Position numbers and translations under genes: made by a program. Under the pieces are notes generated by a model. The model saw only the letters and a program-made list of their open reading frames with translations. It had not been told where the DNA came from and ran no database searches. Positions 40,653 through 64,000 of a stretch of DNA of 64,000 nt are shown here, piece after piece. The stretch lies in the NCBI GenBank assembly GCA_020832005.1, contig JAFIFN010000003.1, forward strand, positions 175 to 64,174, read 5' to 3'. Every line of letters begins with the position of its first letter. The stretch's first letter is position 1. The DNA is from Gammaproteobacteria bacterium. GTDB lineage: Bacteria > Pseudomonadota > Gammaproteobacteria > Steroidobacterales > PWYM01.

Positions 40653-40653
40653 G

Positions 40654-46937: not shown

Positions 46938-46988
46938 GATGGGCCCCTGTTTGCTCATGATGGTTGACTGAAGTATAAAGACTGCGCA

Positions 46989-47366: not shown

Positions 47367-47467
47367 TCGCCGACGCCTGATCGTCCCTGCCGTGTTTGAA
47401 GACGCGGTACGTGGGTCGGACCTGATGCAGCACGCTGCCGCCCTGGCGGCAGTAGGGAGTCATTTCC

Positions 47468-48730: not shown

Positions 48731-50226
48731 AATCCGCAGGTATCTGTCTGCCCGCCCTGCTGTTGATGGCCAATTTGCTGGTTGCCGACGAGCTTGATTT
48801 CACGCTCTGGGAGAACGAACTTGAGGCCTTTGTCGAGCATGATTCGCTGCAGGCTGGTCAGCCGGCTGATTTTGCGGTTCACCTGACTTGGCTGGCGACC
48901 CAGCAAGCGGTGACCGCCGGAGCTCTGACGCTGACCTTGCAGGCGCCCGGGCAGGAACCGGTGCGCCGCACGCTGCGTGCGCCTGATCGACCGGGGATTT
49001 ACCTGGCGCAGCTGGTGCCACGACATGAGGGCCGACACATGCTTGAGCTTGCGCTCGAACATGATGGCCGTAGCCTGGTACTGCGGCATGACCTCACGGT
49101 GCACTCGAGCGCGGGCGCTCGCCACGACCACGATCACGATCACGACGCTGCGGATTCGGCCATCGCGTTCTCCAAGGAGCGGCAGTGGCGGATGGCCTTC
49201 TCGGTCGACACGGCGCGTATCGAGTCGATCGCGGCCCGAATTTCAGCGGCGGCCATGGTTGAAGCCATGCCGGGGAGGCAGGTCGATATTGTCGCACCGG
49301 CGCGCGGCACCTTGAGAGTTGCGGCCGACCGGCCGTGGCTTCGACCGGGCCAGGAGGTCAATGCGGGTGAGACGCTGGCCGAGCTCGCCTCCCTGGCGGG
49401 GGCCGACGACCTCGGTCAGCTGCGCGCTGAGCAGCTTGCGGCCGAAGCCCGCTGGCGTATGGCACGTGAGGATCTGCAGCGGGTGACCGGGCTGGCTGCT
49501 GATGGTGTCGTCTCTGAGCGCCGATTGTCAGAAGCCCAAACCGAGGAGATCACCGCAAGAGGCGCCCTTGAGGCTGCGAATGCACGGTTGGGTGAGGCAC
49601 GCGGCGGCTCAGGTTCGGGCGATGCACTGCTACTGCGCTCGCCGATCCGTGGCACTGTGATCGCTGCCCCGCGCAGCCCTGGTGCCATGGTCGAGGCCGG
49701 GACGTCGCTGGCAACGGTGCTCGATGCAGAGGAGGTCTGGATTCGCGTGTCCCTGCTGGCGCACGACCTGGTCGCGCTCACGGATCCGCAGGATCTGGCG
49801 ATCCGTCGACCCGGTGATCGCGAGTGGCGCCATCCTGACAGTGCGCGGCTGGTCTACCGCGGCCTGGCGCTCGAGGATGGGATTCTGCCGCTGGTGTTCG
49901 AGGTGGCCAACGATGGCAGTCTGCCGCCGGGACTGCCGCTGGTCGCGAGTCTGGCTGCCGGCGCACCGCAGCGCTCGGTCACCATCCCGGAGACAGCACT
50001 GCTCAGTGATGATGGCGTCGATGTCGTGATCGTACAGCTCGGTGGTGAGCGATTCGAACGTCGCCCTGTACGCACACGAACACGCGCCGCCGGTCGCGTC
50101 GCCGTCGGTCTTGGCCTCGAGGCTGGGGAGCGTGTCGTTGTGGACGGCGCCTACGCTGTGCTGCTGGCCGGTCGCACATCCGCTGCGGGTGATGATGATC
50201 ATCATCATCACGGCCACTCGCATTAG
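48727..50226 (+). CDS. RND periplasmic adaptor with extra N-terminal domain and His tracts
   Basis: 499 aa. Signal peptide, a ~130-aa N-terminal extension, (HD)4 at RHDHDHDHD, then MFP core (lipoyl/barrel-like VIAAPRSPGAMVEAGTSLATV). C-terminal DDDHHHHGHSH. Confidence 0.85.
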   Translation: MKSAGICLPALLLMANLLVADELDFTLWENELEAFVEHDSLQAGQPADFAVHLTWLATQQAVTAGALTLTLQAPGQEPVRRTLRAPDRPGIYLAQLVPRHEGRHMLELALEHDGRSLVLRHDLTVHSSAGARHDHDHDHDAADSAIAFSKERQWRMAFSVDTARIESIAARISAAAMVEAMPGRQVDIVAPARGTLRVAADRPWLRPGQEVNAGETLAELASLAGADDLGQLRAEQLAAEARWRMAREDLQRVTGLAADGVVSERRLSEAQTEEITARGALEAANARLGEARGGSGSGDALLLRSPIRGTVIAAPRSPGAMVEAGTSLATVLDAEEVWIRVSLLAHDLVALTDPQDLAIRRPGDREWRHPDSARLVYRGLALEDGILPLVFEVANDGSLPPGLPLVASLAAGAPQRSVTIPETALLSDDGVDVVIVQLGGERFERRPVRTRTRAAGRVAVGLGLEAGERVVVDGAYAVLLAGRTSAAGDDDHHHHGHSH

Positions 50227-50237
50227 GGGGCGGCGTC

Positions 50238-53200
50238 ATGTTTGATCGCCTGGTGCTATGGTCGCTGCGTCGACAGATCTTCGTGCTGCTGATGGCTGCG
50301 CTGTTGCTGGTGGCGGGGCTGTGGGCTGCACGCAGCGCGCCGCTGGATGTGTTTCCGGATCTCACCGCGCCGAGCGTCACGGTCCTCGCAGAGGCGCCTG
50401 GCCTGGCGGCCGAGGAGGTCGAGCGTCAGGTCACCATGGCGGTGGAGAGCGTGGTCAATGGGGCCGATGGTGTCAGGCGGGTGCGATCGCAGTCGGTGGC
50501 GGGGTTTTCGCTGGTCTGGGTCGAGTTCGAGTGGGGCACGGACATCTACCGCGCGCGTCAGTCCGTGACGGAGCGACTCTCGCAGCTTGGTGTCATGCCG
50601 GCGGGTGTGGAACGCCCGCAGCTTGGTCCGATCACCTCCATCATGGGCGAGATCATGTATGTCGGCTTGCGTGCGACGCCGCCGGCGAACCTGATGCAGG
50701 CGCGCGAGAGCGCAGACTGGTTGCTCAAGCCGCAGTTGCTGGCGATACCCGGGGTTGCACAGGTCTCCAACCTCGGCGGTGAGGTCCGTCAGTATCAGGT
50801 GCTGATCAATGCCGAGCGCATGCGCGCCGCCGGCATTGGCATCCAGGCGGTGCGCGATGCCGTGGCAGCGGCGAACCGCAACACCAGCGGCGGTGTGGTC
50901 GAACGTGCAGGTCGGGACATCCAGTTGAGGTTTCTGGGCCGCATCGAGCGTATCGATGACCTGCGTGAAGCCGTGGTGGGAATGCGCAACGGCGTGCCTG
51001 TCCGGTTGCGACATGTGGCCGAAATCGCGATGGGGCCCGCATTGCCGGTCGGGGACGGTGGCGTCAACGGGGCGCCGGGTGTGGTGCTGGCCATTGCCAA
51101 GCAACCGGCCGCCGATACCCTGGCCCTGACTGCCACGGTGCTGGCGACACTTGCAGGCCTTGCCGATGCCTTGCCGGAGGGTGTCGAGCTTGTCGATGAT
51201 CTTTTTCGCCAGGCCGATTTCATTACACTGGCCGTGAGAAACGTCGCCGCGGCGCTGCGCGATGGTGCCCTGCTGGTCACGGTGGTGCTGTTCGCCTTCC
51301 TGCTCAATGTGCGGACTACTGTCATCTCCCTGCTCGCCATTCCGCTGTCGCTGCTGATGGCGATCCTGGTGCTCAGCGCATTCGGCGCCAGCATCAATAC
51401 CATGACGCTTGGCGGCATGACGATCGCCATTGGCGCCCTGGTCGACGATGCGATCATCTTCATCGAAAGCATCTTTCGACGGCTGAAAACCAACCAGGAG
51501 GCGTCCCGGCCTGAAGCGTCCCGCAAGGTTATCGGTGATGCCTGTCTCGAGGTCAGCCAGCCGGTGGTGTATTCGACTGTGATCATCATGCTGGTGTTTC
51601 TGCCGATGTTCTTTCTCGGCGGTATTGAAGGCCGTCTGCTGCAGCCGCTCGGCGTGGCCTATCTTGTAGCCATCGCCACATCGCTGCTCGTGGCGCTGAC
51701 GCTCACGCCGGTGCTGGCGCAGATGTGGCTGGCAGGCAGTGCTGCGGTGCGCGAGCCGCGTGAGCCTGCACCCGTGCGCATGCTGCGCAGCTGGTATCTG
51801 CCGCTGCTGAAGGCCGCGCTGGCGCGCGCCCGATGGATGGTCGGCGGCTCGGTTGCCCTGGTGGTCGTGACGGCGATCCTGATGCTGCAGGCCGGGCGCT
51901 CCTTCCTGCCTGAATTCAATGAGGGCGCACTGACCATCGAAATGCTGACGCCGCCTGGCACGGCACTGGCTGAGTCGGCGCGACTGGCGGCAGAGGTGGA
52001 GCGGGCCCTTCTCGCACATCCGGAAATTCTTTCCGTCGCTCGACGGACCGGGCGCGCCGAGCTCGATGAACACACCCAGCCTGCGCATATGAGCGAACTC
52101 GACGTGCGACTGGCGCCGCTGCAGGACCAGGCAGCGTTTCTGGAGACGCTGCGCAGGGATCTGGCGGGCTTCGCGGGGCTGAATTTCAGCATCGGACAGC
52201 CGATCTCGCACCGCATCGATCACATGCTTTCGGGTGTGAGGGCGAATCTGGCCATCAAGGTGTTCGGCCCTTCCCTTGGGGAGTTGCATCGGCTCGGCAA
52301 TGAAGCTGCCGTGCTGTTGCAGGAAGTGCCTGGCCTGGTCGATATCTGGATCGAGCCGCTGGCTGAAGTGCCACAGCTGAGATGGCGAGCGGACCGCGAA
52401 GCCATTGCGCGCTACGGTCTGAGCGTCGGTGAGGTTGGCGAGGCGATTGAACTGGGCTGGCGTGGCGAGCGGGTCTCCGAAGTGTTCGAAGGCGGCCGTC
52501 GCTTTGATCTGGTTGTGCGTCTGCCTGACGAGGAGCGCGCGCAGCTGGAGCGGCTCGCGGAGCTGCCTCTGAACGCCCCGACGGGCGGGCTGGTTGGCCT
52601 GTCCGAACTGGTTGTCACCAGTCTGGAGAGCGGTGCCGGCACCGTGATGCGCGAAAATGGAGAACGACGACTGGTGATCAGCGCGAACGTCGCCGGAAGG
52701 GATCTGCACGGCACGGTCACGGCGGCTCGCGACGCCCTGCGGGGAATGACCTTGCCGGTCGGCTATCGCATCGACTACGGCGGTCAGTTCGAAGCCGAGA
52801 TTGCTGCAACCCGTACCCTGGGGCAGCTCACCGTGTTCGTGCTGATTGCCATGGTGCTGGTGCTGTTCGCTGCGCTGCGTTCCTGGACGCTGGCATTGAT
52901 GGTCATGGTCAACGTGCCGCTTGCCCTGTTCGGGGGCGTCATCGCGGTATGGCTGATGGGCGGTGTGCTGACAGTGCCGGCGCTGGTGGGCTTGATCACA
53001 CTGCTGGGCATTGCCGTTCGCAACGGACTGCTGCTGATCAGTCGCTACCAGGCCCTCGACGCGGAGGGTGTGGCGCTCAACGAGGTCATAGAGCGGGGCT
53101 CTCTCGAACGCCTGGCGCCGATCCTGATGACCGCGCTGACGGCCGCCTTGGCGCTGATCCCGCTGGCAATGGGTCTGGGGCAGCCGGGGACGGAGATCCA

Positions 53201-53330
53201 GGCACCCATGGCCTGGGTGATTCTCGGGGGGCTGCTCAGCTCGACGCTGCTCAACATGGTCGTGGTGCCGGCGATCTACCTGCTTTTGCGTGAACACAAA
53301 TTACTTGCCTCGGCGCGGCAGCTGCGGTAG
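50238..53330 (+). CDS. Heavy-metal efflux RND pump (CusA/CzcA superfamily, atypical TM4 motif)
   Basis: 1030 aa, 12-TM RND architecture. The N-terminus MFDRLVLWSLRRQIFVLL is like HME pumps. TM4 is GGMTIAIGALVDDAIIFIES, which is neither the Czc DFG-DGA-VEN type nor exactly the CusA type. Confidence 0.9.
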   Translation: MFDRLVLWSLRRQIFVLLMAALLLVAGLWAARSAPLDVFPDLTAPSVTVLAEAPGLAAEEVERQVTMAVESVVNGADGVRRVRSQSVAGFSLVWVEFEWGTDIYRARQSVTERLSQLGVMPAGVERPQLGPITSIMGEIMYVGLRATPPANLMQARESADWLLKPQLLAIPGVAQVSNLGGEVRQYQVLINAERMRAAGIGIQAVRDAVAAANRNTSGGVVERAGRDIQLRFLGRIERIDDLREAVVGMRNGVPVRLRHVAEIAMGPALPVGDGGVNGAPGVVLAIAKQPAADTLALTATVLATLAGLADALPEGVELVDDLFRQADFITLAVRNVAAALRDGALLVTVVLFAFLLNVRTTVISLLAIPLSLLMAILVLSAFGASINTMTLGGMTIAIGALVDDAIIFIESIFRRLKTNQEASRPEASRKVIGDACLEVSQPVVYSTVIIMLVFLPMFFLGGIEGRLLQPLGVAYLVAIATSLLVALTLTPVLAQMWLAGSAAVREPREPAPVRMLRSWYLPLLKAALARARWMVGGSVALVVVTAILMLQAGRSFLPEFNEGALTIEMLTPPGTALAESARLAAEVERALLAHPEILSVARRTGRAELDEHTQPAHMSELDVRLAPLQDQAAFLETLRRDLAGFAGLNFSIGQPISHRIDHMLSGVRANLAIKVFGPSLGELHRLGNEAAVLLQEVPGLVDIWIEPLAEVPQLRWRADREAIARYGLSVGEVGEAIELGWRGERVSEVFEGGRRFDLVVRLPDEERAQLERLAELPLNAPTGGLVGLSELVVTSLESGAGTVMRENGERRLVISANVAGRDLHGTVTAARDALRGMTLPVGYRIDYGGQFEAEIAATRTLGQLTVFVLIAMVLVLFAALRSWTLALMVMVNVPLALFGGVIAVWLMGGVLTVPALVGLITLLGIAVRNGLLLISRYQALDAEGVALNEVIERGSLERLAPILMTALTAALALIPLAMGLGQPGTEIQAPMAWVILGGLLSSTLLNMVVVPAIYLLLREHKLLASARQLR

Positions 53331-53885
53331 CGTCGTTGAGGCGAGCTCAAAAATGAACTTTATTATTCACCGGGGCTCGACGGGGAAGACGACAATGCAT
53401 CGCTCTGTGCGTCGTCAATGGCTGGCAGGATTGATTGCTGCGATGGCGCTGTTCGCGCAATCGGCCATGGCTGTGTGCTGTGGCCCCTTTGCACACGCAG
53501 ACGTCACCTCCGGCGACACCCATCCTGCGGATTGCCCGTCGCTGAATCAGAAGCCGGCATCGTCTCAGCAGGCTTCGACGGACGGGTTTTCTGACGAGCT
53601 ATGGGGTGGTGACAATTGCGTCCATTTGGCGCCGGCGTTGTGTATCGCGCACTCGCTGCCGCCTGTGTCCGCGTCCTACACCGCCGTGGTTGCGTTATCC
53701 TTCGATACGGGCCCTGACCATCTGCTCCTTCCTCGCGATACAACCCTGCAGGTATGGTCGCCCGGTCATGGCTTCCTCAGATCTAGGGCAGAGCGTGTCG
53801 CCTCTCCCGATGGACGGACCCTGTTTCTGACGACCCGGCGACTGCGCCTGTAGCGTAGCTGTCGCTCGGTTGGCGCAGGGCGCAT
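53280..53885 (+). repeat. Copy A of a ~600-bp diverged duplication (RND 3' end + leader + Cys-rich small gene + ~30 bp)
   Basis: Alignable by eye with 59902-60500. Shared parts are the RND tail (CTGCTTTTGCGTGAACACAAATTACTTGCC vs CTGTTGCGTAAATACAAACTGCTTGCC), the leader CCGGGGCTCGA(C/T)GGGGAAGACGACAATGCATC, the CDS, and TGTCGC(T/C)CGGT(T/C)GGCGCA after the stop. Confidence 0.75.
53395..53853 (+). CDS. Cys/His-rich exported small protein, uncharacterised (paralog 1)
   Basis: 152 aa. Signal peptide MHRSVRRQWLAGLIAAMALFAQSAMA, then VCCGPFAHA, HPADCPS, DNCVHLAPALC, VWSPGHGF. Basic tail DGRTLFLTTRRLRL. A paralog lies at 60014-60469 (~55-60% identity by my hand alignment). Confidence 0.65.
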   Translation: MHRSVRRQWLAGLIAAMALFAQSAMAVCCGPFAHADVTSGDTHPADCPSLNQKPASSQQASTDGFSDELWGGDNCVHLAPALCIAHSLPPVSASYTAVVALSFDTGPDHLLLPRDTTLQVWSPGHGFLRSRAERVASPDGRTLFLTTRRLRL

Positions 53886-54059
53886 CGGCGCCGTGCCGAC
53901 GCCGCAGGACTGGATTCCCCCTTTGGCATAACGCCTGAATTACACCTGCGTGCGCCAATCCCGCGACCTTCCGAGCGACCTTTTCCCCACGTTCGCCTGC
54001 GCTGCAGCGTTGACGAGCGAGTTGTGCTGTTGGCTTTTGCCATTTACTCGGAGAGTGAG

Positions 54060-54620
54060 ATGATGAAATACACACGGATACTGCTGGGCATGGCGGCGGT
54101 GGCGAGTACGCTCATGGTCGGTCAACTGACATGGGCGCATGCGTATGTGCACGTGACGGAGGTCTACGCCGGCTGGCGGCAGGATATCGAGATTCGTATT
54201 CCTCACGGTTGCTACGGGTCACCGACCAATTCCGTGCGTGTGCGGATTCCCGATGGCGTGGTCTCCGTCGTGATCGAACACAATCGCGACTGGAACATCG
54301 AGACTCGCATGCGCAAGTTGCCTGAACCGCGGCGCGGCGAAGGCGGAGTGTTGATCACCGAAACAGTCGACGAGATTATCTGGAGCGGAAACTCGTTGCC
54401 GGAAGGTCGCTTCGAGCGCTTCACCTTTCGGGCAGTAATGCCGAACGAGCCCGGTAGGATTCTTTGGTTCCGTACGATCCAGGCTTGTGACGAGGGAGAG
54501 CATCGTTGGGTCGATATTCCGGACGAGGGCGCCAATATCCTCGAGTTCCTGCGAAGCGCGCCCGAACCTGCGGCCTTCGTCAAGCTGGTGGATGCCGGCC
54601 GGCCCCAGTACGACTATTGA
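54060..54620 (+). CDS. ycnI: YcnI-family (DUF1775) periplasmic copper-binding protein
   Basis: Signal peptide ...GQLTWA followed by a mature N-terminal His (HAYVHV). IPHGC and W...I.W motifs are typical of YcnI-like proteins. SD GGAGAG. Immediately upstream of a copC-copD fusion, as in Bacillus ycnI/ycnJ. Confidence 0.78.
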   Translation: MMKYTRILLGMAAVASTLMVGQLTWAHAYVHVTEVYAGWRQDIEIRIPHGCYGSPTNSVRVRIPDGVVSVVIEHNRDWNIETRMRKLPEPRRGEGGVLITETVDEIIWSGNSLPEGRFERFTFRAVMPNEPGRILWFRTIQACDEGEHRWVDIPDEGANILEFLRSAPEPAAFVKLVDAGRPQYDY

Positions 54621-54633
54621 GGAGTCATTGGAG

Positions 54634-56256
54634 ATGAATCGACCTGGCGTTTTCATCACGATGTTGGTGGTCCTGGCTGCGGCATGGCTTGTCCCGGTGC
54701 AGGCTCAGGCGCATGCCGTGCTGCTTGGCTCCACACCCGCGGCTGAGCAGCAGCTCGAGCGCTCACCGCCGGAACTGATACTCAACTTCAACGAAAACGT
54801 CGGGCCGATCCATTTCCGCGTGCTTGATCTCGCTGGCGACGAGGTTGGCGACCCCGGCGAGATTAGAACTGAAGGCAATAATGTCCAGTTGCCGTTGAAT
54901 GCCACGCTTGAAAACGGAACCTATGTTGTCACCTGGCGGGTCGTATCGGCGGATACTCACCCGGTGGGCGGGTCCTATCTGTTCTCGGTGGGTGAACCAC
55001 TGGCTGCAGGCGCGCAGGTGGCCGTAGACGAGGCGAACGCATGGACTGCGGTCGTGTTCGTAAATCGCCTGGTGCTCTACGCCGTGGTATTGCTGGGCGT
55101 AGGGTCTGTCCTGGTCCTGAGGGTGCTCGAGCTGCCCGTGAAAGCCGCCATGCTGCTGCGCCGACAGATGCATGCCAGCGCCTTGATTGCGCTGGTGAGC
55201 TTTGTTGTCGCCATCGGTGCAGGCGGTGCGGAGATCCTCGCAGGAGGCCTCGGAGCCTTGTTCGACGGCGCATCCTGGCGGGCGGGGGCTGGCACCACGC
55301 TGGGAGGCAGCGCGCTGCTCGGCGTGCCCGGGGCGCTGCTGCTGGCCTGGGCGTCGCGAGCGTCGTTGCCGACGTCGATCTTCGCGGTCGCTGCGATCGG
55401 AGCCGCGCTTATGGTGCTGAGTTTCCTTCTGACAGGGCATGCAGCTACCGCTCAGCCGGTGTGGTTGATGGCGACCATGGTTGCAGTGCACGTGGTGTGC
55501 GCAGCACTGTGGTTCGCAGCGCTGCTGCCGCTGGCGGCGGTGCTGGGTGAGACGGCCCCGCGCAGATCTGCGGCGATCATGGACCAGTTCTCTCGCATCG
55601 CCGTGTGGAGTGTCGCGGCGCTGTTCATCAGCGGCTTCGTGATCAGCTGGGTTCAGGTGTCTGAACTGGGCCTGTTATTCACCACGGACTACGGTTTTCG
55701 CCTTGGCATCAAGGTGGCGTTGTTCCTGGTACTGCTGGGCCTTGCAGCGCGCAACAAGTCGCAACTGACGCCGCGCCTGGCGGCCGGTGCCGAACAGGCA
55801 CGCAAATCCCTGAAGAACGCGATTCGTATCGAGTACGGCCTGATCGTGCTGATTCTTGCTGCAGCGGTTTCGTTGACCCTGCCTGTCCCGCCGCGTGCGA
55901 TTGCCGAGCAGTCAGCGATGGAAGTGGATACCGGTACCGGCTATAGCGCAACCGCCGAGCAGCGCGGATATACCGCGCGCGTGGAGGTGACGCCGGCGCG
56001 TACCGGCGAGAACATGGTCATGGTCTATTTCACAGGCCCGGACGGCGAAACCTTCCGGATGGTGCGCGCAGCGATAAGAGCGAGCCTTCCGGCCGCCTCG
56101 ATCGAGGGGATCTACAAGGTGGGTCATGCCATGGGCGGGGGATATCACTTCGACTTCAACGAGTTCGTGATTCCAGGGGCCTGGGAGATGCGTGTTGAAG
56201 GTTTCGTTGATGACTTCGAAATGCTGCGGTTCGACGTGACCGTGCAGATTCGCTGA
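54634..56256 (+). CDS. CopC-CopD fusion protein (YcnJ-like) with C-terminal extracytoplasmic domain
   Basis: 540 aa. Signal peptide ...VQAQA, then a CopC domain starting with His (HAVLLGSTP...WRVVSADTHPVGGSY). Next comes a multi-TM CopD region, then a ~110-aa soluble C-terminal domain. This is the same tri-partite layout and size as I recall for B. subtilis YcnJ. Confidence 0.85.
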   Translation: MNRPGVFITMLVVLAAAWLVPVQAQAHAVLLGSTPAAEQQLERSPPELILNFNENVGPIHFRVLDLAGDEVGDPGEIRTEGNNVQLPLNATLENGTYVVTWRVVSADTHPVGGSYLFSVGEPLAAGAQVAVDEANAWTAVVFVNRLVLYAVVLLGVGSVLVLRVLELPVKAAMLLRRQMHASALIALVSFVVAIGAGGAEILAGGLGALFDGASWRAGAGTTLGGSALLGVPGALLLAWASRASLPTSIFAVAAIGAALMVLSFLLTGHAATAQPVWLMATMVAVHVVCAALWFAALLPLAAVLGETAPRRSAAIMDQFSRIAVWSVAALFISGFVISWVQVSELGLLFTTDYGFRLGIKVALFLVLLGLAARNKSQLTPRLAAGAEQARKSLKNAIRIEYGLIVLILAAAVSLTLPVPPRAIAEQSAMEVDTGTGYSATAEQRGYTARVEVTPARTGENMVMVYFTGPDGETFRMVRAAIRASLPAASIEGIYKVGHAMGGGYHFDFNEFVIPGAWEMRVEGFVDDFEMLRFDVTVQIR

Positions 56257-56267
56257 GGTCTGCATTG

Positions 56268-57683
56268 ATGGTCCTGCTGGTTGCGCGCAAGGAGCTTGCG
56301 ATCGTGTTGTCGGACGGCAGAATCCGAACGCTCGGCGCACTGCTTGCGGTGATGTTGCTGATGGCAATCGGGGCCGCCGTGCAACGCTTCGGGGTTATCT
56401 CCAGCGAGCGAGATATGGCACAGTCGCTGGTCGCCGAACAATGGGAGCAGCAGGGTGAGAAGAACCCTCACGCGGCGGCGCACTACGGCTTGTACGCATT
56501 TCGGCCAGTGGGTCCGCTGACGTTCTTTGATACCGGCGTAAGTTCTCACCAGGGGGTGTCGGTATGGCTGGAGGCACATCGTCGCAATTTCGCCGAAGCG
56601 CCCCCGGCGGCTGACCTTGGTAGCGTCGCGCGTTTTGGCGAAATGACCGGGGCCTTCGTGCTGCAGACGCTGCTGCCGCTGCTGGCAATTCTGCTCTGCT
56701 ACGCCGCGTTTGCCGGAGAACGCGAAAACGGCACGCTGCGTCAGGTCCTGGCCACAGGAGTTCGTCCATTGCAGCTGCTGTCCGGAAAGGCATTGGGCGC
56801 GCTGGGGGCGGTGATGGTGCTGTTGTTGCCCGTCGTGTTCCTGGCAGTGCTGGCGTTGCTGTTTTCAGAGTCGGCAATCTCGGTGCTGCCGCGTGTAGTT
56901 CTTCTGACCCTGGCTTACGTCGTGTACGCGGGGGTTTTCGTGATGCTGTCCCTGGGTGTTTCAGCGCGCGCGTCATCCACGCAGGCGGCACTGGTGATGC
57001 TGGTGGGGTTCTGGGCGATCACCAGCTTTGTCGTACCGCGCATTGTCGCAGATGCGGCATCCCTGCTCCGGCCGCTGCCGACGCTGGAGGAGTTTCGTCA
57101 GGGAGTCGAGCAGGATTTACAGACCGCACGTGATGGTCGCAGCGTTGATGAGGTGATCCGCGAGCGGCGCCAGCAGGTGTTGTCCCTGTACGGTGTGGCC
57201 TCGGAGGATGAGCTGCCGATCAACTTCCAGGGTATGGTGCTGGCCCTGCAGGAGGAGATCAGTGATGTGGCTTACGCACGGCAGTTTTCGCAGTTGCAGG
57301 CGCGGATTCACGCGCAGCTCGCATTGCATGACCTGGCCACGCTGTTGTCTCCAAGAATGGCCGTACAGCGTTTCTCTGCTGAACTCTCCGAGACCAGTCT
57401 GGATGCGCAACAGGCGTTCGAAGCCGAGGCCGAGGCCTACCGCCGCGAGTTCATCGCACTGCTGAATCGCGACATGACCTTCAGCGCGCGCGGCGGACAG
57501 GTCGACTATCGCGCCGGTGCTGAACTGTGGTCGCAGGTGGAATCGTTCGCGTATGGCGGCCGGGATACCAGCCGGGTGGCTGCAGCGGCGGCCCCGGGCG
57601 CTGTCCTGCTGCTGTTGTGGTTTGCAGGCACGGCGCTGTTCGCAGCGCTTGCCGTGCGTCGAACTGACCTGGCACTGCGATGA
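56268..57683 (+). CDS. ABC-2-type transporter permease with large extracytoplasmic/coiled regions (DUF3526-like as I recall)
   Basis: ~471 aa. N-terminal TM, a loop containing EKNPHAAAHYGLYAFRP, a cluster of TM helices around ERENGTL, then a long Glu/Arg/Gln-rich segment and a final TM. 11 bp after copCD. Confidence 0.72.
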   Translation: MVLLVARKELAIVLSDGRIRTLGALLAVMLLMAIGAAVQRFGVISSERDMAQSLVAEQWEQQGEKNPHAAAHYGLYAFRPVGPLTFFDTGVSSHQGVSVWLEAHRRNFAEAPPAADLGSVARFGEMTGAFVLQTLLPLLAILLCYAAFAGERENGTLRQVLATGVRPLQLLSGKALGALGAVMVLLLPVVFLAVLALLFSESAISVLPRVVLLTLAYVVYAGVFVMLSLGVSARASSTQAALVMLVGFWAITSFVVPRIVADAASLLRPLPTLEEFRQGVEQDLQTARDGRSVDEVIRERRQQVLSLYGVASEDELPINFQGMVLALQEEISDVAYARQFSQLQARIHAQLALHDLATLLSPRMAVQRFSAELSETSLDAQQAFEAEAEAYRREFIALLNRDMTFSARGGQVDYRAGAELWSQVESFAYGGRDTSRVAAAAAPGAVLLLLWFAGTALFAALAVRRTDLALR

Positions 57684-59086
57684 TGGTCGCGCGCGTATTG
57701 CGGCAGGACTGGGTGTTGCTGCGATCCAGCCCGGGGCTGTGGATTGCGCTTCTTCTACTGACAGGTGTCACGGCGCTTGCCGCAGCCGCTGGCCAGGCAC
57801 GGCTCGGTTTGCATGATGCAGCCGTCCAGAGCCGGATCGATACGGCCGAGCAGACGCACGTTGCTGTCATCCAGACCCTGCAGCGCTGGGAGCAGGCGGG
57901 CGATGCGGCTGCAGCACCGGCAGTGGCCAGTCCTGGTGCACTGGGGCTGTCAGTGCTTGAGACTCCAATGGCGCTGCCGGGCGTGCCACTCGCGGCCCTG
58001 GCTGCGGCCAGCGGACGGCCCCAGGCGGTGAGTGTGACCGCACATGCTGACTATCGAATGGAATCAATCGGCATTATAGAGAATGCGGCGAACCTCGCTC
58101 TGGGCGGATTCGACGTGATATTCGTCATCGTGTTCCTGATGCCGATCGTGATTATCGCGCTGACGTTCGATTTGCTTTCCCGGGAGCGTGAACTGGGCAC
58201 GCTGCCACTGGTAATCGCCCAGGGCGTATCGTTGCGGGACTTCGTGCTTGCCCGGGTGCTCGGCCGCGGTGTGCTGGTTCTTCTGGGCATGGCGACTGCG
58301 GGGCTGGTCGCCATCCTTGCGGTGGGAGGACCGGCCGCGCTCTGGCCCGACGGGCTTGTCTGGCTGCTGATAGCGGGACTCTACGGTGCTTTCTGGTTTG
58401 CGCTGGCGCTGTTCGTCAACACACTGCGTCTGGGCTCGGATCAGAACGGAGTCATTCTCGCCAGCTGCTGGCTGGTCCTGGTGGTCGTAATTCCCGCGCT
58501 GGTCAGTTTGCTGTCAGCGACGCTGTACCCGGCGCCCTCACGTGTACTGCTAACCACCGAGATCCGCGAGGCAGCGGCTGAAGCCGAGGAACGCGCGGCT
58601 GACGCACGCGAGGCGTTCCTGTTCGATCACCCGGAACTCGCGGGCGGCGCTGGGGCCCAGGAGGCCTATTTCAGGCAGGTGATGGAGACTGAGCGCGACG
58701 TTGCAGCTACCATTGCGCCGCTGCTCGAGTCCTTCGCGGATCAGGCCCACCAACGGGATGCGCTGGTCAATCGCCTGGCCGTGTTGTCGCCGGCGCTGCT
58801 GGCCGATCAGGCCCTGTTGAGCATTGCCGGAATGGATGAGGCGCGGGCGCGCGCATGGCGTGATGCTGTCGGCGAATTTCATGCTGCCTGGTCAGAGTTA
58901 TTTGCCGACCGTATTCGTCGCGAAGTACAGGTCACCAGTGCCGAGGTCGAAGCACTCCCGGTATTTGGCTTCAGTGAACCGGTAGGTCGTCACCTGCAAC
59001 TTGGACCCGGACTGGTGCTACTGATCATGAGCCTCGCACTGCTGATCACAGCCGTGGCCCGTCTGCGCCGCTACCCGATTACCTGA
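57680..59086 (+). CDS. Second ABC-2-type permease (paralogous architecture)
   Basis: 468 aa. Same layout as the previous gene (SRERELGTL motif, TM cluster, charged helical region, C-terminal TM). ATGA overlap with it. Confidence 0.72.
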   Translation: MMVARVLRQDWVLLRSSPGLWIALLLLTGVTALAAAAGQARLGLHDAAVQSRIDTAEQTHVAVIQTLQRWEQAGDAAAAPAVASPGALGLSVLETPMALPGVPLAALAAASGRPQAVSVTAHADYRMESIGIIENAANLALGGFDVIFVIVFLMPIVIIALTFDLLSRERELGTLPLVIAQGVSLRDFVLARVLGRGVLVLLGMATAGLVAILAVGGPAALWPDGLVWLLIAGLYGAFWFALALFVNTLRLGSDQNGVILASCWLVLVVVIPALVSLLSATLYPAPSRVLLTTEIREAAAEAEERAADAREAFLFDHPELAGGAGAQEAYFRQVMETERDVAATIAPLLESFADQAHQRDALVNRLAVLSPALLADQALLSIAGMDEARARAWRDAVGEFHAAWSELFADRIRREVQVTSAEVEALPVFGFSEPVGRHLQLGPGLVLLIMSLALLITAVARLRRYPIT

Positions 59087-59098
59087 AAGGGGATTTTT

Positions 59099-59797
59099 AT
59101 GCTGCAGACCCAGGACCTTTCGAAGAGCTACAACGGTCACGAGGCCCTCAAAGGTCTCAACCTGCAGGTCGCTCCGGGGGAAATTTACTGCCTGCTGGGG
59201 GCGAATGGTGCTGGCAAGACCACTACGATCAACCTGTTCCTTAGCTTTATTGAGCCCAGCGCCGGGTGCGCACTGGTCGACGGCATCGACGTGATGACCG
59301 ATCCTGTGGCAGCGCGCCACCGGCTGGCCTATATCCCGGAGCAGGTGATGCTCTACCGACAGCTGTCCGGGCTGGAGAACCTTGTCTATTTCAATCGGCT
59401 GTCTGGCAGGGATATGGCACCCGAGGGCTATCGTGAGGTGCTTCGGGACTGCGGTCTGCAGGCCGACGCCGTGGACCGCAAGCTCGGCACATACTCCAAG
59501 GGCATGCGTCAGAAGGTCGGCGTTGCGATTGCCGTGGCCAAGCAGGCGCGCGCCTTGCTGTTGGATGAACCCACGTCAGGCCTGGATCCCAAAGCCAGCA
59601 ACGAGTTTTCGCAGCTGCTGGTGCGCCTGCGCGAGCAGGGCGCAGCCATCCTAATGGCGACGCACGATTTGTTTCATGCCCGTCAAACGGCTACACGGAT
59701 CGGTATCATGTGCGAAGGGGTTCTGCGTCGGGAGTTGGTAGCCCACGAGGTCTCGCATGCGGACCTCGAGCGCATCTACCTGGAGCACATGAATTGA
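59099..59797 (+). CDS. ABC transporter ATP-binding protein (ABC-2/DrrA/NosF-like subfamily)
   Basis: 232 aa. Walker A GANGAGKTT, signature YSKGMRQK, Walker B LLLDEPTSGLD, H-loop ATHD. SD AAGGGG upstream. Confidence 0.9.
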   Translation: MLQTQDLSKSYNGHEALKGLNLQVAPGEIYCLLGANGAGKTTTINLFLSFIEPSAGCALVDGIDVMTDPVAARHRLAYIPEQVMLYRQLSGLENLVYFNRLSGRDMAPEGYREVLRDCGLQADAVDRKLGTYSKGMRQKVGVAIAVAKQARALLLDEPTSGLDPKASNEFSQLLVRLREQGAAILMATHDLFHARQTATRIGIMCEGVLRRELVAHEVSHADLERIYLEHMN

Positions 59798-59835
59798 TCA
59801 CCTTTACAAATATTATCCCGAAGAGTCCTCCACGG

Positions 59836-59949
59836 CCTTCATAGGTGGCCGATTCATAGGTGCCCAGCGTGGGCATGGGGCCGGGCCCGGCGAACGGCGG
59901 GCTGTTGCGTAAATACAAACTGCTTGCCTCCGTCGGACGGCTGGGGTAG
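59836..59949. pseudogene. Mosaic gene relics: 33-nt S9-peptidase fragment (antisense) plus ~48-nt 3' end of an HME-RND gene with its stop codon
   Basis: 59836-59868 matches 45664-45696 inside the S9 peptidase gene at 31 of 33 nt (encoding LGTYESATYEG vs LGTYESVTYEG). 59902-59949 translates to LLRKYKLLASVGRLG*, compared with the intact RND C-terminus LLREHKLLASARQLR*. Confidence 0.6.
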
Positions 59950-60500
59950 CTTGATCGACGCGAGCCCGATCAAGAACCTAACCGTCAGCCGGGGCTCGAT
60001 GGGGAAGACGACAATGCATCACTCCATGCGTCGTCAATGTCTGGTCGCGTTCATCGCCACGGTTGCGCTGTGCGCGCAGTCGGCGTTGGCACTTTGCTGT
60101 GGGCCCTTCGCACATGCCAGCGTTGCGCCAGACGACAATCATCCGCAGGACTGCCCGTCGCGTACGCACAGTGCATTGTCCGACCAGGCAACGGTGGACG
60201 GCTTGTCTGATGAGCTGACCGACGGCCACGACTGCGTTCATCTGATTCCCGCGTTATGCACGGCGTACTCATTGCCGCCGTTGTCTGCGGCCTGCAACAC
60301 TGTCGAAACTTCTTCCCCCGATCCCGGTGCAGAATATGGCCTTTTGCCGCGTGCGGCCGCCGCACCGGTATGGTCGCCAGGCCATGGGTTTCCCAGATCC
60401 AGGGCAGAGCATGCAAGGCCCGCCGATGGCAGGGCCCTGTTTCTTACAACCGGGCGTCTGCGTTTGTAGTGCAGGTGTCGCCCGGTCGGCGCACGGCGTA
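59902..60500 (+). repeat. Copy B of the ~600-bp diverged duplication
   Basis: See copy A (53280-53885). Confidence 0.75.
60014..60469 (+). CDS. Cys/His-rich exported small protein, uncharacterised (paralog 2)
   Basis: 151 aa. MHHSMRRQCLVAFIATVALCAQSALA, then LCCGPFAHA, HPQDCPS, HDCVHLIPALC, VWSPGHGF, DGRALFLTTGRLRL. Same leader/RBS sequence as paralog 1. Confidence 0.65.
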   Translation: MHHSMRRQCLVAFIATVALCAQSALALCCGPFAHASVAPDDNHPQDCPSRTHSALSDQATVDGLSDELTDGHDCVHLIPALCTAYSLPPLSAACNTVETSSPDPGAEYGLLPRAAAAPVWSPGHGFPRSRAEHARPADGRALFLTTGRLRL

Positions 60501-60684
60501 TTGATGCAAGTCGGTAAACTGCCTGCGATACATCGACCAGGTTCCCAGTGCATCACGCGATTGCGCCATCGTCCGGGTGGGATGTCTGCATCGTGAGCTC
60601 GGGCGTGACTGCCTGGAGCACACACAACGATGACCAAACAGCAGAATTTTTTTCAAGATACAGATCAAGCAAGGGAGAGTAGCG

Positions 60685-63117
60685 ATGAAGGTCCATTCCA
60701 GAGGGAGGGTTGCGGCCGCGGTGGCCTGTGCGCTGGGCACCGGTGTGCTGGCCACGCCGGTTGTCGCGCAGGACGGGCGCAGTGCCCAGGCGCTCGAGGA
60801 GATCGTCGTGACCGCGCGCAAGCGCGAGGAGAGCCTGCAGGATGTGCCGATTTCGGTGACGGCGTTCTCCGGCGATCGCCTGAGCGAGCTGCAGATCAGA
60901 AACGCAACCGATATTGCTGAGTTCACCCCGGGATTTTCGTTCCAGAGCTATCTCGGTCGCGACGAGGATCGTCCGGTGGTGCGTGGCATGGCCAACATCC
61001 TGGGCCAGGCCAACGCCTCGTTCTTCATCGATGGCGTGTACGTGCCCGGTTCGATTGCCTCGACCGAGCTTCGCAACCTCGAACGCGTGGAAGTGATCAA
61101 GGGGCCACAGGCTGCACTGTATGGTCGCGCGACGTTTGCCGGTGCCATCAACTACGTCACCCGGACGCCCGGCAATGAGTACGAAGGCGAAATCAGCCTG
61201 ACCGCAGCCGAGCACCGGGAATACGAAGTCGCAGCTTCGCACATGGGACCGATTATCCCCGATCAGCTGTACTACTACGTCGCAGGACGCTACTTCGAGT
61301 ATGGCGGCGAGTATCGCAACGAGCTGACCGGCCGCTATGTTGGCGACCAGGAGACTCTGAGCTTCACCGGCAAGCTCGTCTGGACGCCGACCGATACCTT
61401 CGATGCGACCTTGTCCCTGACGTATGCAGAGGACAACGACGGTCATCCCGCGCTGTTCCTGCAGCGCTTTGGCCAGAACAATTGTTTTGCGCGTGATCCG
61501 GTCAATGCGCCTGCTGCCCGCGGCTATTACTGCGGCGAGGCGCTTTGGAACGATACGGTGCGCCTGCGCACCGACGTACTGCCGGATGGCGGCGGTTTGC
61601 AGCGTGATGTCCTGCGCACCGCGCTGACCCTGAACTGGGATGTGTTCGGTGGTCACACGATCACCAGCGTCACCGGATTACAGGATGAGGAGATCACCCG
61701 GGAGCTTGACACTTCCTACGGCGGCTATGATCCTCTGGCGTATCTGTTCGCCGTGTTTGCACCGCTCAACGGCCAGTTCTGGCGGGTGCAGGACGAGGAG
61801 CGCCGCTCACTGTCACAGGAATTGCGCATCAGCTCGCCCACTGATCGCGCGTTTCGCTGGCTGGCCGGCACCTATTATTTCAATGACAAGTTCGACCTGT
61901 TCAACAATGACCGCATGAACCCGGGTACCAACTTCCCGTCGCAAGTTGATCCGAACAACGTCGTACGTCAGCCTAATACGTTTACCGAGACCCAGATCAT
62001 CGAGAATATGGCGGTGTTCGGTGGCGTCGAGCTGGACTTCAACGACCAATGGACGGCGACCGCGGAGCTTCGCTACGCAATCGATCGCCTTTCCAATGAC
62101 TTCGTCAATGTGACCGGTGTACCTTCAGCGTTCCAGAACGCGAAGTTCTACAGTCTCAGTCCCCGTGTGACGCTGAGTTATCAGTACAGCGACGAGCTGA
62201 CGATCTACGGCAACATCGCGCAAGGCAACAAGCCGGGCGGTTTCAATGACCCCGGGATCGAGCCCGAACTCCAGACCTACGACGAAGAGCAGTCGACGAA
62301 CTTTGAAATCGGCTTCAAGAGCCAGCTGTTCGACGGACGTGCCCGCTGGAACGTGGCGGCCTTCTACATCGACTGGAAGGATCAGCAGCTGACCTTTACC
62401 GGTGAGCGTGCCGACGGCTCATTGAACTCGTTCATCCAGAACGTCGGCAAGACACGCGTCATGGGTCTGGAGACCGAGTTTACGATGCTGCTGGCCGACA
62501 ACTGGACGATGGACTTGAGCTACTCGTTCGTCGACTCGGAGATTCGCCGCTACACAAGCGAGGATCAGGCCATCCTGCTCGGGTGTGCTTTGCCACCGGC
62601 CCAGGCAGGTAATCCCGCGGCGGTCGCCGCCTACGCAGCCTGTATCGAAGAGCGTGGCAGTGTCGCGGGCAACCAGACGCCGCGTTCACCGAAACACCAG
62701 GCCTCGCTGCGTTCGCAGTACAACGTGCCGATGGCCAACGGGCTGGAGTGGTTCCTCGGTGGCAACGTCACGCTGGAGTCGAGTCGTTACTCGCAGGTGC
62801 ACAATCTGGCCAAGACGGGGGATCGCTGGCTGGTGGGTGCGCAGACCGGTATCCGTGGGGAGCGCTGGGATGTGACCCTGTGGGGCAAGAACCTGTTCAA
62901 CGACAAGACCATCGTCGACATCTTGCGCTACATCGATACCAGTCACTGGGTGGAGGGGCCGGAGATTCCATGTACGGCGCCCGGCCTGAATCCGGCAGCG
63001 AATTGTGGACCGCTGTTTCGCTCGGGCCCCTGGGGTGGCTTCCAGACCCCGCGCGGCTTCGCCAATACCCTGCCGCGTCTGCGTCAGATCGGCGTGACGG
63101 CGAATTTGCGCTTCTAG
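60685..63117 (+). CDS. TonB-dependent outer-membrane receptor
   Basis: 810 aa. Signal peptide, plug with TonB-box-like EEIVVTARKREESLQDVPISVTAF. Barrel ending ...IGVTANLRF (aromatic C-terminus). No N-terminal signalling extension. SD GGGAGAG. Confidence 0.9.
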   Translation: MKVHSRGRVAAAVACALGTGVLATPVVAQDGRSAQALEEIVVTARKREESLQDVPISVTAFSGDRLSELQIRNATDIAEFTPGFSFQSYLGRDEDRPVVRGMANILGQANASFFIDGVYVPGSIASTELRNLERVEVIKGPQAALYGRATFAGAINYVTRTPGNEYEGEISLTAAEHREYEVAASHMGPIIPDQLYYYVAGRYFEYGGEYRNELTGRYVGDQETLSFTGKLVWTPTDTFDATLSLTYAEDNDGHPALFLQRFGQNNCFARDPVNAPAARGYYCGEALWNDTVRLRTDVLPDGGGLQRDVLRTALTLNWDVFGGHTITSVTGLQDEEITRELDTSYGGYDPLAYLFAVFAPLNGQFWRVQDEERRSLSQELRISSPTDRAFRWLAGTYYFNDKFDLFNNDRMNPGTNFPSQVDPNNVVRQPNTFTETQIIENMAVFGGVELDFNDQWTATAELRYAIDRLSNDFVNVTGVPSAFQNAKFYSLSPRVTLSYQYSDELTIYGNIAQGNKPGGFNDPGIEPELQTYDEEQSTNFEIGFKSQLFDGRARWNVAAFYIDWKDQQLTFTGERADGSLNSFIQNVGKTRVMGLETEFTMLLADNWTMDLSYSFVDSEIRRYTSEDQAILLGCALPPAQAGNPAAVAAYAACIEERGSVAGNQTPRSPKHQASLRSQYNVPMANGLEWFLGGNVTLESSRYSQVHNLAKTGDRWLVGAQTGIRGERWDVTLWGKNLFNDKTIVDILRYIDTSHWVEGPEIPCTAPGLNPAANCGPLFRSGPWGGFQTPRGFANTLPRLRQIGVTANLRF

Positions 63118-63165
63118 AACGTACTTCAGCGGGTCACCAGAACCCCGCACGGGTGCGCTGTTTGA

Positions 63166-63194
63166 GGCCGGGCAGAGATGCCCGGCCTTTTTTT
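63166..63194 (+). terminator. Rho-independent terminator after the TonB-dependent receptor
   Basis: GGCCGGGC-agagat-GCCCGGCC followed by seven T. Confidence 0.85.
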
Positions 63195-63236
63195 GGTCCG
63201 GTTGTCATCGCGCGGGTGGCCGGGTAGGGTGCGCCA

Positions 63237-64000
63237 ATGTTTTTGATCCGCGCATTCGGATGCGCAGTCATCGCTGGTGCGTTGTTTACGCCACTGCCTT
63301 GCGCGGCCGAGTCTGCGGGGGCAGATAATTCGGACAGCACACTCGAGCTTGGCGGGGCGCTGCGCTTCAATCTGGGTTGGCTTGACTACGCAGGCCCGCG
63401 CCGATGGAGCGACGTCGATGTGGAGTTGCTGCGTATCGACCTGCGGGGCAGCCACGGACCATTGAAATTCTCCGTGCAGCATCGATGGTACGAAGGTTTC
63501 GAGGCCGTGCATCATGCATGGGCCGGATGGACGCTGGATGCGGACCGCGATCTGCGGTTGGGCATCCAGCAGGTGCCGTTCGGGTTGCTGCCGTATGCCT
63601 CACAGAGCTTCTGGTTTGGCTCAGGTTATTACCTGGGGCTCGAGGACGATCACGATCTGGGCGTCGTGTGGCGCGATGAACGAGGTGATCGCAGCTGGCA
63701 TGCAGGTGTGTTGCTGCGAGACGAATACGGCACGGGACGCCGCTTTGCACGTTACTCGTTTGATGTTGCCACGACCGATGAATTGCCCTATCGCCAGGCC
63801 GAGCATCTGGTGCTGCGCTATGCACGTCGCCTCACCGGCGAGCGCTGGGCACTGGGCTGGGGCATGTCGGGAATGCTCGGGCGTGTGGAAAACCGCGACG
63901 ATGGCCAAACCCACGGTCACGTTGCCGCAGCAGTGCATCTGGAGGGCAGTGCGTCGTCCTGGACCGCCCAGCTTCAATGGGCACACTACGATTACGGGGT
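63237..64000 (+). CDS. Putative outer-membrane beta-barrel (porin-like) protein, 5' partial view (runs off window)
   Basis: This open frame is not in the supplied track because it has no stop in the window. MFLIRAFGCAVIAGALFTPLPCAAES is a signal peptide. It is followed by alternating aromatic/polar beta-strand-like segments (LRFNLGWLDY, LKFSVQHRWYEGF, SFWFGSGYYLGLE). Confidence 0.5.
   Translation, partial: MFLIRAFGCAVIAGALFTPLPCAAESAGADNSDSTLELGGALRFNLGWLDYAGPRRWSDVDVELLRIDLRGSHGPLKFSVQHRWYEGFEAVHHAWAGWTLDADRDLRLGIQQVPFGLLPYASQSFWFGSGYYLGLEDDHDLGVVWRDERGDRSWHAGVLLRDEYGTGRRFARYSFDVATTDELPYRQAEHLVLRYARRLTGERWALGWGMSGMLGRVENRDDGQTHGHVAAAVHLEGSASSWTAQLQWAHYDYG

Follow-up and report, generated by a model that had tools for sequence, protein, structure and literature searches.

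A conserved module of YcnI, CopC-CopD and a DUF3526 ABC-2 permease pair, with candidate copper-sensing leader open reading frames, in a gammaproteobacterial copper-efflux island

The entry of copper into bacteria and its loading into proteins are poorly understood, and the described systems closest to the locus reported here are of three kinds. In Bacillus subtilis, Cu(II) passes between YcnI and the CopC-CopD fusion YcnJ, and both proteins support growth when copper is limiting (PMC12362106, PMC13344008); the Cu(II) site of CopC consists of the N-terminal histidine plus a DxH motif (PMC12362106). The NosDFY(L) complex (PDB 7o0y, 7znq, and 7qba), built around an ATP-binding cassette (ABC) transporter of type V ABC-2 fold, provides the copper supply to nitrous oxide reductase. 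Finally, two exported leader peptides of the DUF2946 family regulate copper genes: CruR (Bp2923) of Bordetella pertussis carries a CXXC motif, 45 residues, and RAPP, and copper frees the stalled ribosome, after which Rho terminates transcription before a TonB-dependent receptor (TBDR) gene (PMC9426467), while CutF of Rhodobacter capsulatus carries a Sec signal, CxxxC, 45 residues, and a Pro-rich motif, with copper prolonging the stalling and switching on a downstream multicopper oxidase (PMC9973294, bioRxiv 2025.02.05.636593). Both leaders are unstable or poorly structured and head copper operons with TBDR, YcnI, and CopC genes (PMC9426467, PMC9973294, bioRxiv 2025.02.05.636593). Here we analyze a 64,000-nucleotide stretch of contig JAFIFN010000003.1 from a metagenome-assembled gammaproteobacterial genome (the window, in whose positions all coordinates are given), where a YcnI gene and a CopC-CopD gene share a tight operon with two ABC-2 permeases containing the DUF3526 domain and an ABC ATPase. 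YcnI, CopC-CopD, and the DUF3526 ABC-2 pair form a conserved module, known mostly from uncultured lineages; its parts are of known kinds, and their combination appears to be new.

The core of the locus consists of YcnI (54063-54620; a periplasmic DUF1775 protein), CopC-CopD (54634-56256; 540 aa), the permeases Perm1 (56268-57683) and Perm2 (57680-59086), and an ATPase of the DrrA/NosF type (59099-59797; 232 aa, with Pfam ABC_tran and NCBIfam matches). It is preceded by the Cys-rich exported protein CysA (53395-53853; 152 aa) and followed by the CysA paralog CysB (60014-60469; 151 aa) and a TBDR (60685-63117; 810 aa). An earlier note, made from the sequence alone, had placed all genes from 53395 to 63117 on the plus strand, with gaps of 13, 11, -4, and 12 bp from YcnI to the ATPase; checking the coordinates bore out the first point, and recomputing the gaps returned identical values. 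Its gene identities agree with Pfam, which gave DUF1775, CopC plus CopD, ABC2_membrane_2 plus DUF3526 twice, ABC_tran, and Plug plus TonB barrel. The flanks are also as it described them, with a Cys-rich pair bracketing the block, the TBDR behind it, and an intrinsic terminator at its end (63164-63199, plus strand); the two Cys-rich proteins are 60% identical. The terminator stem (63164-63189) has 11 bp, 8 of them G-C pairs, precedes a T run, and is the sole strong terminator within 53200-63500; known RNA families gave sub-threshold matches only, at this terminator, across 46500-64000. Spacers outside the core are wide: 209 bp between CysA and YcnI, 216 bp between the ATPase and CysB, and 215 bp between CysB and the TBDR.

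To place the locus among genomes, a Perm1 alignment was run against the genomes of 185,579 species; the patterns used were KNPH[AS]AAHY and PL[SA]FFD[TP]G, so that this forward scan sees only permeases carrying one of these two motifs. At least 580 relatives were recovered, the best 80 loci were kept, and their neighbors were mapped by phmmer. Among the 26 informative loci with a Perm1 of at least 44% identity, CopC-CopD is adjacent on the same strand in all 26, YcnI in 23, and the ATPase in 13, whereas among the 15 informative loci at 43% identity or less the corresponding counts are 0, 0, and 14 (Fisher p = 1.6e-11 for CopC-CopD, 26/26 versus 0/15, from loci that are not phylogenetically independent). 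The linked group includes Rhodospirillaceae, Woeseiaceae, Steroidobacteraceae, and Burkholderiales, and its permeases form one clade in a neighbor-joining tree, with 42 tips and no outsiders. Within this clade three gene orders occur (YcnI-CopCD-P1-P2, with or without the ATPase at its end; P1-P2-ATPase-YcnI-CopCD; and CopCD-P1-P2-ATPase-YcnI), and the retention of adjacency through rearrangement argues for functional coupling. A reverse scan of metagenomes starting from the linked YcnI subfamily found the permeases in 18 of the 23 loci that had at least 5 kb on both sides. The packing of YcnI, CopC-CopD, and ABC-2 genes to which the earlier note drew attention is kept, then, across Alpha- and Gammaproteobacteria.

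At ten Rhodospirillaceae loci the module forms part of a longer operon that encodes a leader of the CysA/CysB family in first position, an outer-membrane efflux protein (OEP), a two-domain multicopper oxidase, YcnI, CopC-CopD, P1, and P2. This version resembles copABCD of Pseudomonas syringae in combining CopC and CopD with a multicopper oxidase and an outer-membrane protein; it differs in that the outer-membrane protein is of the TolC/OEP type rather than CopB, the oxidase is a short two-domain form, and YcnI and the ABC-2 pair are added, and the window itself has no multicopper oxidase. Rhodospirillaceae loci with the order YcnI-CopCD-P1-P2 (L006-L021 and others) have no ABC ATPase gene within 10 kb. 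A DUF1838 protein with a Tat signal, not found in the window, recurs beside the module at 14 genome loci, immediately after P2 or immediately before P1 (L001, L007, L013, L020, L025, L026, L029, L030, L040, L043-L045, L047, L126, and others), and could be a further periplasmic partner.

Both copper proteins of the module match their Pfam families. The match of YcnI to PF07987 (DUF1775) scores 109.3 bits (cut-off, 25; E = 2.8e-31), and its predicted signal-peptide cleavage after TWA would leave an N-terminal histidine (His26) that is invariant in the 9 aligned homologs. In the same alignment W77 and W107 are invariant and no Glu is, the mono-histidine brace being made of an N-terminal His with Trp and Glu ligands; phmmer of YcnI against the PDB gave no match and hence no alignment to the B. 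subtilis structure. An alignment of the YcnI subfamily linked to the ABC-2 pair contains an invariant RxxHGC motif. The invariant positions of this subfamily are D41, R45, H48-G49-C50, and C142, with PQYPW near the C terminus, features not discussed for B. subtilis YcnI. In the fusion protein, the CopC domain scores 78.8 bits (cut-off, 23.3; E = 6.6e-22) and the CopD domain 80.2 bits (cut-off, 32.1; E = 1.7e-22), and matches to the NCBIfam CopC and CopD equivalogs are both under cut-off. Its predicted mature N terminus is HAVLLG, and a D-T-H motif can be read within SADTHP; the C-terminal ~110 to 119 residues have no Pfam match at E <= 1, and a YtkA domain was not detected there.

This part of the locus shares much with the uptake systems ycnKJI of B. 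subtilis and yobA-yebZ-yebY of Escherichia coli: a DUF1775 protein with an N-terminal His, the adjacency of YcnI and CopC-CopD, and, as in B. subtilis YcnJ, a CopC-CopD fusion of like size with a His...DxH Cu(II) motif. It differs from both in that its YcnI is a soluble periplasmic protein of a subfamily marked by the invariant HGC, and in that only here do an ABC-2 heterodimer and an ATPase lie inside the tight operon; relative to B. subtilis, the YcnK repressor is absent and Pfam does not find the YtkA domain of YcnJ.

The permeases belong to a type of ABC machine for which a copper-handling relative is known. Both Perm1 and Perm2 match PF12679 (NosY-like permease; E = 6.7e-22 and 5.4e-14) and PF12040 (DUF3526; 73.5 and 70.8 bits; cut-off, 25). 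A structure model of Perm1 (pLDDT, 81; pTM, 0.81) was compared with the PDB by Foldseek, and the best 11 matches are all NosY of NosDFY (best E = 1.2e-6; TM-score of 0.75 on the target); NosY is likewise the sole match of the permease family profile among PDB sequences (E = 5e-6), and NosF is the best bacterial match of the ATPase among solved structures (E = 2.8e-40). The suggestion of a NosDFY-like ABC machine was well placed, with NosY and NosF the closest of the solved bacterial structures. No gene for a solute-binding protein is present at the locus, and the permease fold is ABC-2 rather than type I or II, so the marks of a classical ABC importer are lacking. NosD, NosL, and NosZ domains were found neither by Pfam and NCBIfam in the genes from 46989 to 63117 nor among the recurrent neighbors.

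Six hydrophobic transmembrane (TM) helices are predicted in Perm1, and residues 41 to 128 form the loop between TM1 and TM2, predicted to be periplasmic if the N terminus is cytoplasmic (N-in), a topology that we infer. The NPHAAAHYG motif (residues 67 to 75), which the note had taken for periplasmic, falls inside this predicted loop, and its histidines H69 and H73, together with D89, E103, and H105 elsewhere in the loop, are invariant in all 78 homologs (42 linked and 36 distant), E103 and H105 lying outside the search pattern. The DUF3526 part of Perm1 (approximately residues 270 to 434) is modeled as an all-helical insert between TM5 and TM6 and is predicted to be periplasmic too. Over the TM core, Perm1 and Perm2 are only 29% identical, and the NPH motif is missing from Perm2, which implies an asymmetric heterodimer. 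The permease residues that set the linked clade apart are chiefly Arg and Glu (R41, E48, R49, R301, R364, and R416) and might form a docking surface.

The ABC genes accordingly share with NosDFY the type V ABC-2 permease fold, the absence of a solute-binding protein, and a locus tied to periplasmic copper proteins. NosY, however, is a 270-aa homodimer, whereas here two diverged 470-aa permeases each carry a periplasmic loop of ~90 aa and a helical DUF3526 insert of ~165 aa; the ATPase, at 232 aa, lacks the C-terminal extension of the 308-aa NosF; and the partners are YcnI and CopC-CopD instead of NosD, NosL, and NosZ. The literature searched, including searches for ABC-2 or NosY with CopD, holds no description of a YcnI/CopCD/DUF3526 ABC-2 module, in keeping with the earlier note's failure to match the combination to a described system. 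One 2025 paper mentions "TonB-dependent and ABC transporters" in copD neighborhoods in passing and also states that a copper-importing ABC transporter is yet to be identified in any species.

We turn to the Cys-rich proteins on either side of the core, which had been counted among the components of the copper trafficking route. CysA consists of an export signal (hydrophobic residues 10 to 28, predicted as a helix), a PxDCP motif, the Cys pair CVHLAPALC, and then 69 residues ending in LFLTTRRLRL; CysB repeats these motifs and ends in LFLTTGRLRL. No family of Pfam or NCBIfam matches either protein even at E <= 10, and Pfam PF11162 (DUF2946) gave none at E <= 10 for CysA, CysB, P0122, and P0123. 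The family is small, with 22 proteins in a word-indexed search and 19 clusters in a profile search of 1.84 billion proteins. Its members keep the export signal, a PC..H motif, the Cys pair, a poorly conserved spacer, and an invariant LxLTTxRLR[LI] immediately before the stop codon. Both cysteines are invariant, spaced as CxxxC in the alpha clade (30 members) and as Cx7C in the window clade, and the distance from the second Cys to the C terminus is held at 64 residues (n = 26), 63 residues (n = 4), or 69 residues (n = 5, the window clade) despite the variable spacer sequence. Many members have DPP, RAPP, or RGPP 46 to 47 residues past the CxxxC, a position at which CysA and CysB read ASPD and RPAD, with no PP. 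The AlphaFold model of CysA contains the signal helix only, residues 33 to 152 having no secondary structure (pLDDT, ~45 to 54). The dN/dS ratio is 0.24 between CysA and CysB, and the values obtained for these genes run from 0.24 to 0.50, indicating moderate purifying selection over the whole ORF (open reading frame).

With CutF and CruR the family shares an export signal, a Cys pair as the putative sensor, predicted disorder, in many members a Pro-containing motif ~45 to 47 residues past this pair, and a first position, with long downstream spacers, before copper genes (multicopper oxidase, TBDR, YcnI, or CopC). It differs in going undetected by Pfam DUF2946, in the 12-residue invariant tail LYLTTQRLR[LI] that follows the Pro motif up to the stop, and, for the window clade, in the Cx7C spacing and the loss of the PP motif (ASPD/RPAD). 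Because their build, predicted disorder included, matches that of the CutF/CruR leader peptides, CysA and CysB are more likely regulators than trafficking components, a departure from the earlier note. By this analogy CysA is a candidate copper-sensing leader ORF for the YcnI operon, and CysB is one for the TBDR gene; the whole family may be a diverged, unrecognized relative or analogue of CutF/CruR. As the searches gave no link to DUF2946 and the window copies lack CXXC and PP, we class CysA and CysB as CutF/CruR-like in working and not as members of that family.

The spacer between CysA and YcnI (53854-54062, plus strand) contains a C-rich, G-poor stretch at ~53915 to 54015 that resembles the Rho-loading region of CruR: the C/G ratio over 78 nt reaches 2.36, which ranks at the 99.9th percentile for the 64-kb sequence, the excess of C over G per 60 nt is +13 to +14, and no intrinsic terminator was found in the spacer. 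Folds of the leader regions are not unusually stable (z = -1.7 and -0.7). Long-range pairing that would hide the ycnI ribosome-binding site was seen in the minimum-energy fold and was rejected, its partner not being kept in the ortholog L084. No operator palindrome shared by the regions upstream of both leaders was found, and across the 80 metagenome loci no CruR-type ORF precedes the module except three members of the Cys-rich family. Two distant DUF3526 loci that have no YcnI or CopC-CopD contain small ORFs with CAVC, 44 to 45 residues, and RAPP (L074:8827-9153 and L048:12962-13345), one just before an ATPase-P1-P2 operon (with a weak DUF2946 match, E = 0.26) and the other between P2 and a TBDR.

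The two leader genes lie in diverged copies of one cassette. Copy A (53267-53900, plus strand) spans the last ~20 codons of an RND gene, CysA, and ~45 nt past the stop; copy B (59886-60515, plus strand) spans the dead 3' end of a CusA-like gene, CysB, and ~45 nt past the stop. The copies are 67% identical in DNA over ~650 nt, from 128 nt before the start codon to ~45 nt past the stop codon. The upstream part belongs in copy A to the 3' end of the RND gene itself (..LLREHKLLASARQLR and stop) and in copy B to the dead end of such a gene, CusA-like, at ~59886 to 59945 (..LLRKYKLLASVGRLG and stop). Given these extents, flanks included, the block from YcnI to the ATPase sits between diverged direct repeats, and the whole leader cassette was copied before the TBDR gene. 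Both copies retain TTGCCT-N17-TAGCGT/TAGCTT ~70 nt before the start codon, a possible promoter identified by eye.

The TBDR itself is not a conserved member of the module. It occurs within 10 kb in only five linked lineages, with variable position and strand, and in no Rhodospirillaceae locus. The copper route once proposed for this locus, running through a TBDR, periplasmic chaperones, CopD, and an ABC engine, therefore stands for the linkage of YcnI, CopC-CopD, and the ABC genes but not for the TBDR. The best NCBIfam match of the receptor is to a generic siderophore subfamily, every NCBIfam match being under cut-off, and among solved structures it comes closest to FyuA, the receptor for yersiniabactin (E = 1e-19). 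Assignment to the OprC/NosA type is not supported: the OprC model is not among the best 25 of 27 NCBIfam matches (E <= 0.01), and the PDB matches include no OprC chain. In the distant DUF3526 loci, from Acidobacteriota and related groups, TBDRs are more frequent, occurring in 14 of 36, in some of them directly before a second P1-P2 pair.

A single explanation that combines these results, to which we would give an even chance, is that the locus encodes a copper-handling module at the periplasmic face of the inner membrane, with a NosFY-like engine and CutF/CruR-like leaders. As their Bacillus and E. coli homologs suggest, YcnI and the CopC domain would each bind Cu(II) through the N-terminal His and exchange it, and CopD would provide a membrane path for copper toward the cytoplasm. 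The DUF3526 permeases and the ATPase would form a type V ABC machine of the NosFY kind rather than a classical solute importer, in which ATP hydrolysis drives the periplasmic parts, namely, the His/Asp/Glu loop of Perm1 and the DUF3526 inserts with their helices. YcnI and CopC would be loaded with copper, relieved of it, or otherwise exchange it with these parts, in the way that NosFY drives copper transfer by means of NosD. CysA and CysB would stand outside the copper route as leader ORFs that act in cis like CutF and CruR, with the exported leader, while nascent, sensing copper by a Cys pair at a fixed distance from the invariant C-terminal tail and thereby setting downstream expression, of the genes from YcnI to the ATPase for CysA and of the TBDR gene for CysB. 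The TBDR would be a lineage-specific add-on under like control. We infer by analogy copper as the substrate of the ABC machine, its hand-over, the function of the leaders, and the direction of flux. On the last point we lean slightly toward acquisition under copper limitation, on account of the roles that experiments have established for YcnI and YcnJ and of the TBDR that appears to be leader controlled.

Several results weigh against this explanation. On the ABC side, the periplasmic loop of Perm1 is modeled with low confidence (pLDDT, 34 to 72), and the genome scan itself selected for the His motif within it; the invariant His loop also occurs in distant homologs that have no YcnI or CopC-CopD and for that reason is not copper specific. 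The copper-carrying Nos partners NosD and NosL are absent, 13 of the 26 linked loci have no ATPase gene nearby, most of the Rhodospirillaceae loci included, and DUF3526, an experimentally uncharacterized family, is mentioned by no paper in the literature searched. On the leader side, neither Pfam DUF2946 nor the profile search of 1.84 billion proteins links the Cys-rich family to a larger one, the window copies have neither CXXC nor RAPP, the C>G bubble behind CysB is only a weak one, at the 88th percentile, and the apparent anti-Shine-Dalgarno pairing is not conserved in the ortholog. With respect to direction, the efflux island and the multicopper oxidase/OEP operon of the Rhodospirillaceae fit tolerance as well as uptake.

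Copper tolerance is an explanation that we regard as possible, if somewhat doubtful. The ABC-2 heterodimer would export copper, free or in a complex, out of the cytoplasm or inner membrane and into the periplasm, where YcnI and CopC would buffer it and the oxidase, an OEP, or an RND pump would remove it, CutF-like leaders letting copper induce the genes. The setting speaks for such a role, with the block lying directly behind a CusA/CzcA pump and a second Cus-like set and a CopA ATPase on the other strand, and so does the Rhodospirillaceae operon, whose order of leader, OEP, oxidase, YcnI, CopC-CopD, P1, and P2 resembles copABCD and cutFOG. With such a setting and operon, the outer-membrane importer route that the earlier note favored is not supported. 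ABC-2 systems that have no binding protein are, moreover, usually exporters, and CutF, which induces a multicopper oxidase with copper, has a CxxxC like the alpha-clade leaders. Yet experiments tie YcnI, YcnJ, and YebZ to uptake when copper is limiting, a paralogous leader precedes a TonB-dependent importer here as its proposed control, several lineages have TBDR and PepSY_TM genes recurring close to the module, and P1B ATPases, of which the window has one, already export cytoplasmic copper. The presence of that receptor, of a generic siderophore type closest to FyuA, would also suit a ligand cycle in which the ABC-2 pair exports or recycles a chalkophore or metallophore, the TBDR takes up the loaded ligand again, and YcnI and CopC receive the metal, and the distant DUF3526 loci often have a TBDR directly in the operon with a second P1-P2 pair; this is nonetheless improbable, as the neighborhood of the module has no recurrent genes for ligand biosynthesis, most linked loci lack the TBDR, and the conserved partners are metal-binding proteins rather than ligand-processing enzymes.

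Two further alternatives concern single parts of the locus. CysA and CysB may be periplasmic or membrane-tethered copper-binding proteins, acting as disordered chaperones or buffers rather than as leaders, which would account for the export signal, the conserved Cys and His, and selection over the whole ORF and would sit well with window copies that have neither RAPP nor CXXC and with a spacer to the next gene of only ~80 nt in one Rhodospirillaceae locus. We nevertheless think this unlikely: no fold is predicted past the signal helix, the family is tiny, the whole cassette, flanks too, has been duplicated before another gene, and a strict Cys-pair-to-stop ruler with a variable spacer and an invariant extreme C terminus is hard to explain for a mature protein. 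It is very improbable, in our judgment, that the ABC-2 system has nothing to do with copper and is merely co-located, its substrate being, for example, a lipid, a peptide, or a metal other than copper. Distant DUF3526 systems do occur apart from YcnI and CopC-CopD, some beside COG0523-like GTPases and other TBDRs, and the permease family has no characterized member, but the linkage holds in 26/26 loci through three gene orders, with gaps in the window of 11 to -4 bp, the linked permeases form a monophyletic group, DUF2946-like leader ORFs also stand beside distant DUF3526 operons, and the nearest solved relative is itself a copper machine.

If the combined explanation of a copper-handling module with CutF/CruR-like leaders is taken further, the DUF3526 heterodimer could be the first ATP-powered copper engine coupled to YcnI and CopC-CopD, providing an ABC-driven step, said to be missing so far, for copper acquisition or the loading of cuproproteins in bacteria, and the Cys-rich genes could be a new branch of arrest peptides that stall by LxLTTxRLR[LI] rather than by RAPP, a proposal that we advance only tentatively. 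By tying the best-supported pair of uptake proteins to an ATP engine of the NosFY type, the operon offers a concrete candidate for an energized step in copper entry and protein loading, and the combined explanation provides a first working hypothesis for the uncharacterized DUF3526 transporter family, present in at least 580 species genomes. Should the leader interpretation be true, control of the CutF/CruR type would reach past what Pfam recognizes as DUF2946, and a leader cassette could be copied before a new gene. Six distant DUF3526 loci (L052, L063, L064, L072, L073, and L081) have a CobW/COG0523-like GTPase nearby, assigned by sequence motifs alone, which hints that the wider DUF3526 family serves metal homeostasis more generally.

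The genes from YcnI to the ATPase are embedded in a copper-efflux island. Upstream on the plus strand are an OEP (47468-48730; Pfam OEP), a membrane-fusion protein with His-rich tracts (~48727-50226; Pfam HlyD), and a CusA/CzcA-family RND pump (50238-53330; Pfam ACR_tran and NCBIfam TIGR00914, the latter at 768 bits against a cut-off of 701). The membrane-fusion protein has an HDHDHDHD tract, a DDDHHHHGHSH end, and a weak, sub-threshold FixH-like match at its N terminus. A set on the minus strand (36117-44319) comprises a second CusA/CzcA pump (36117-39248; Pfam and NCBIfam), a CopA-type P1B ATPase with an HMA domain (42031-44319; family search), a CusB-like adaptor with a heavy-metal-binding domain, and an OEP.

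A motif scan of the plus strand revealed another candidate leader ORF, leader0 (46989-47366; 125 aa), 101 nt ahead of the operon for the OEP, membrane-fusion protein, and RND pump. It has an export signal, His-rich tracts, and the sequence HALLC, 46 residues, and RAPPR followed by the stop codon; it has no Pfam match, and a C>G bubble reaches +13 at 47330. These features make leader0 look like a third leader of the CutF/CruR type. On the minus strand, the longest ORF of a Dpp5-like peptidase gene (44883-47333) would overlap leader0, but the gene is probably shorter and free of that overlap, because the family match begins only with residue 155 and a start resembling that of a signal peptide (MSKQGPIMRILLLALLALT) occurs near 46957 or 46936.

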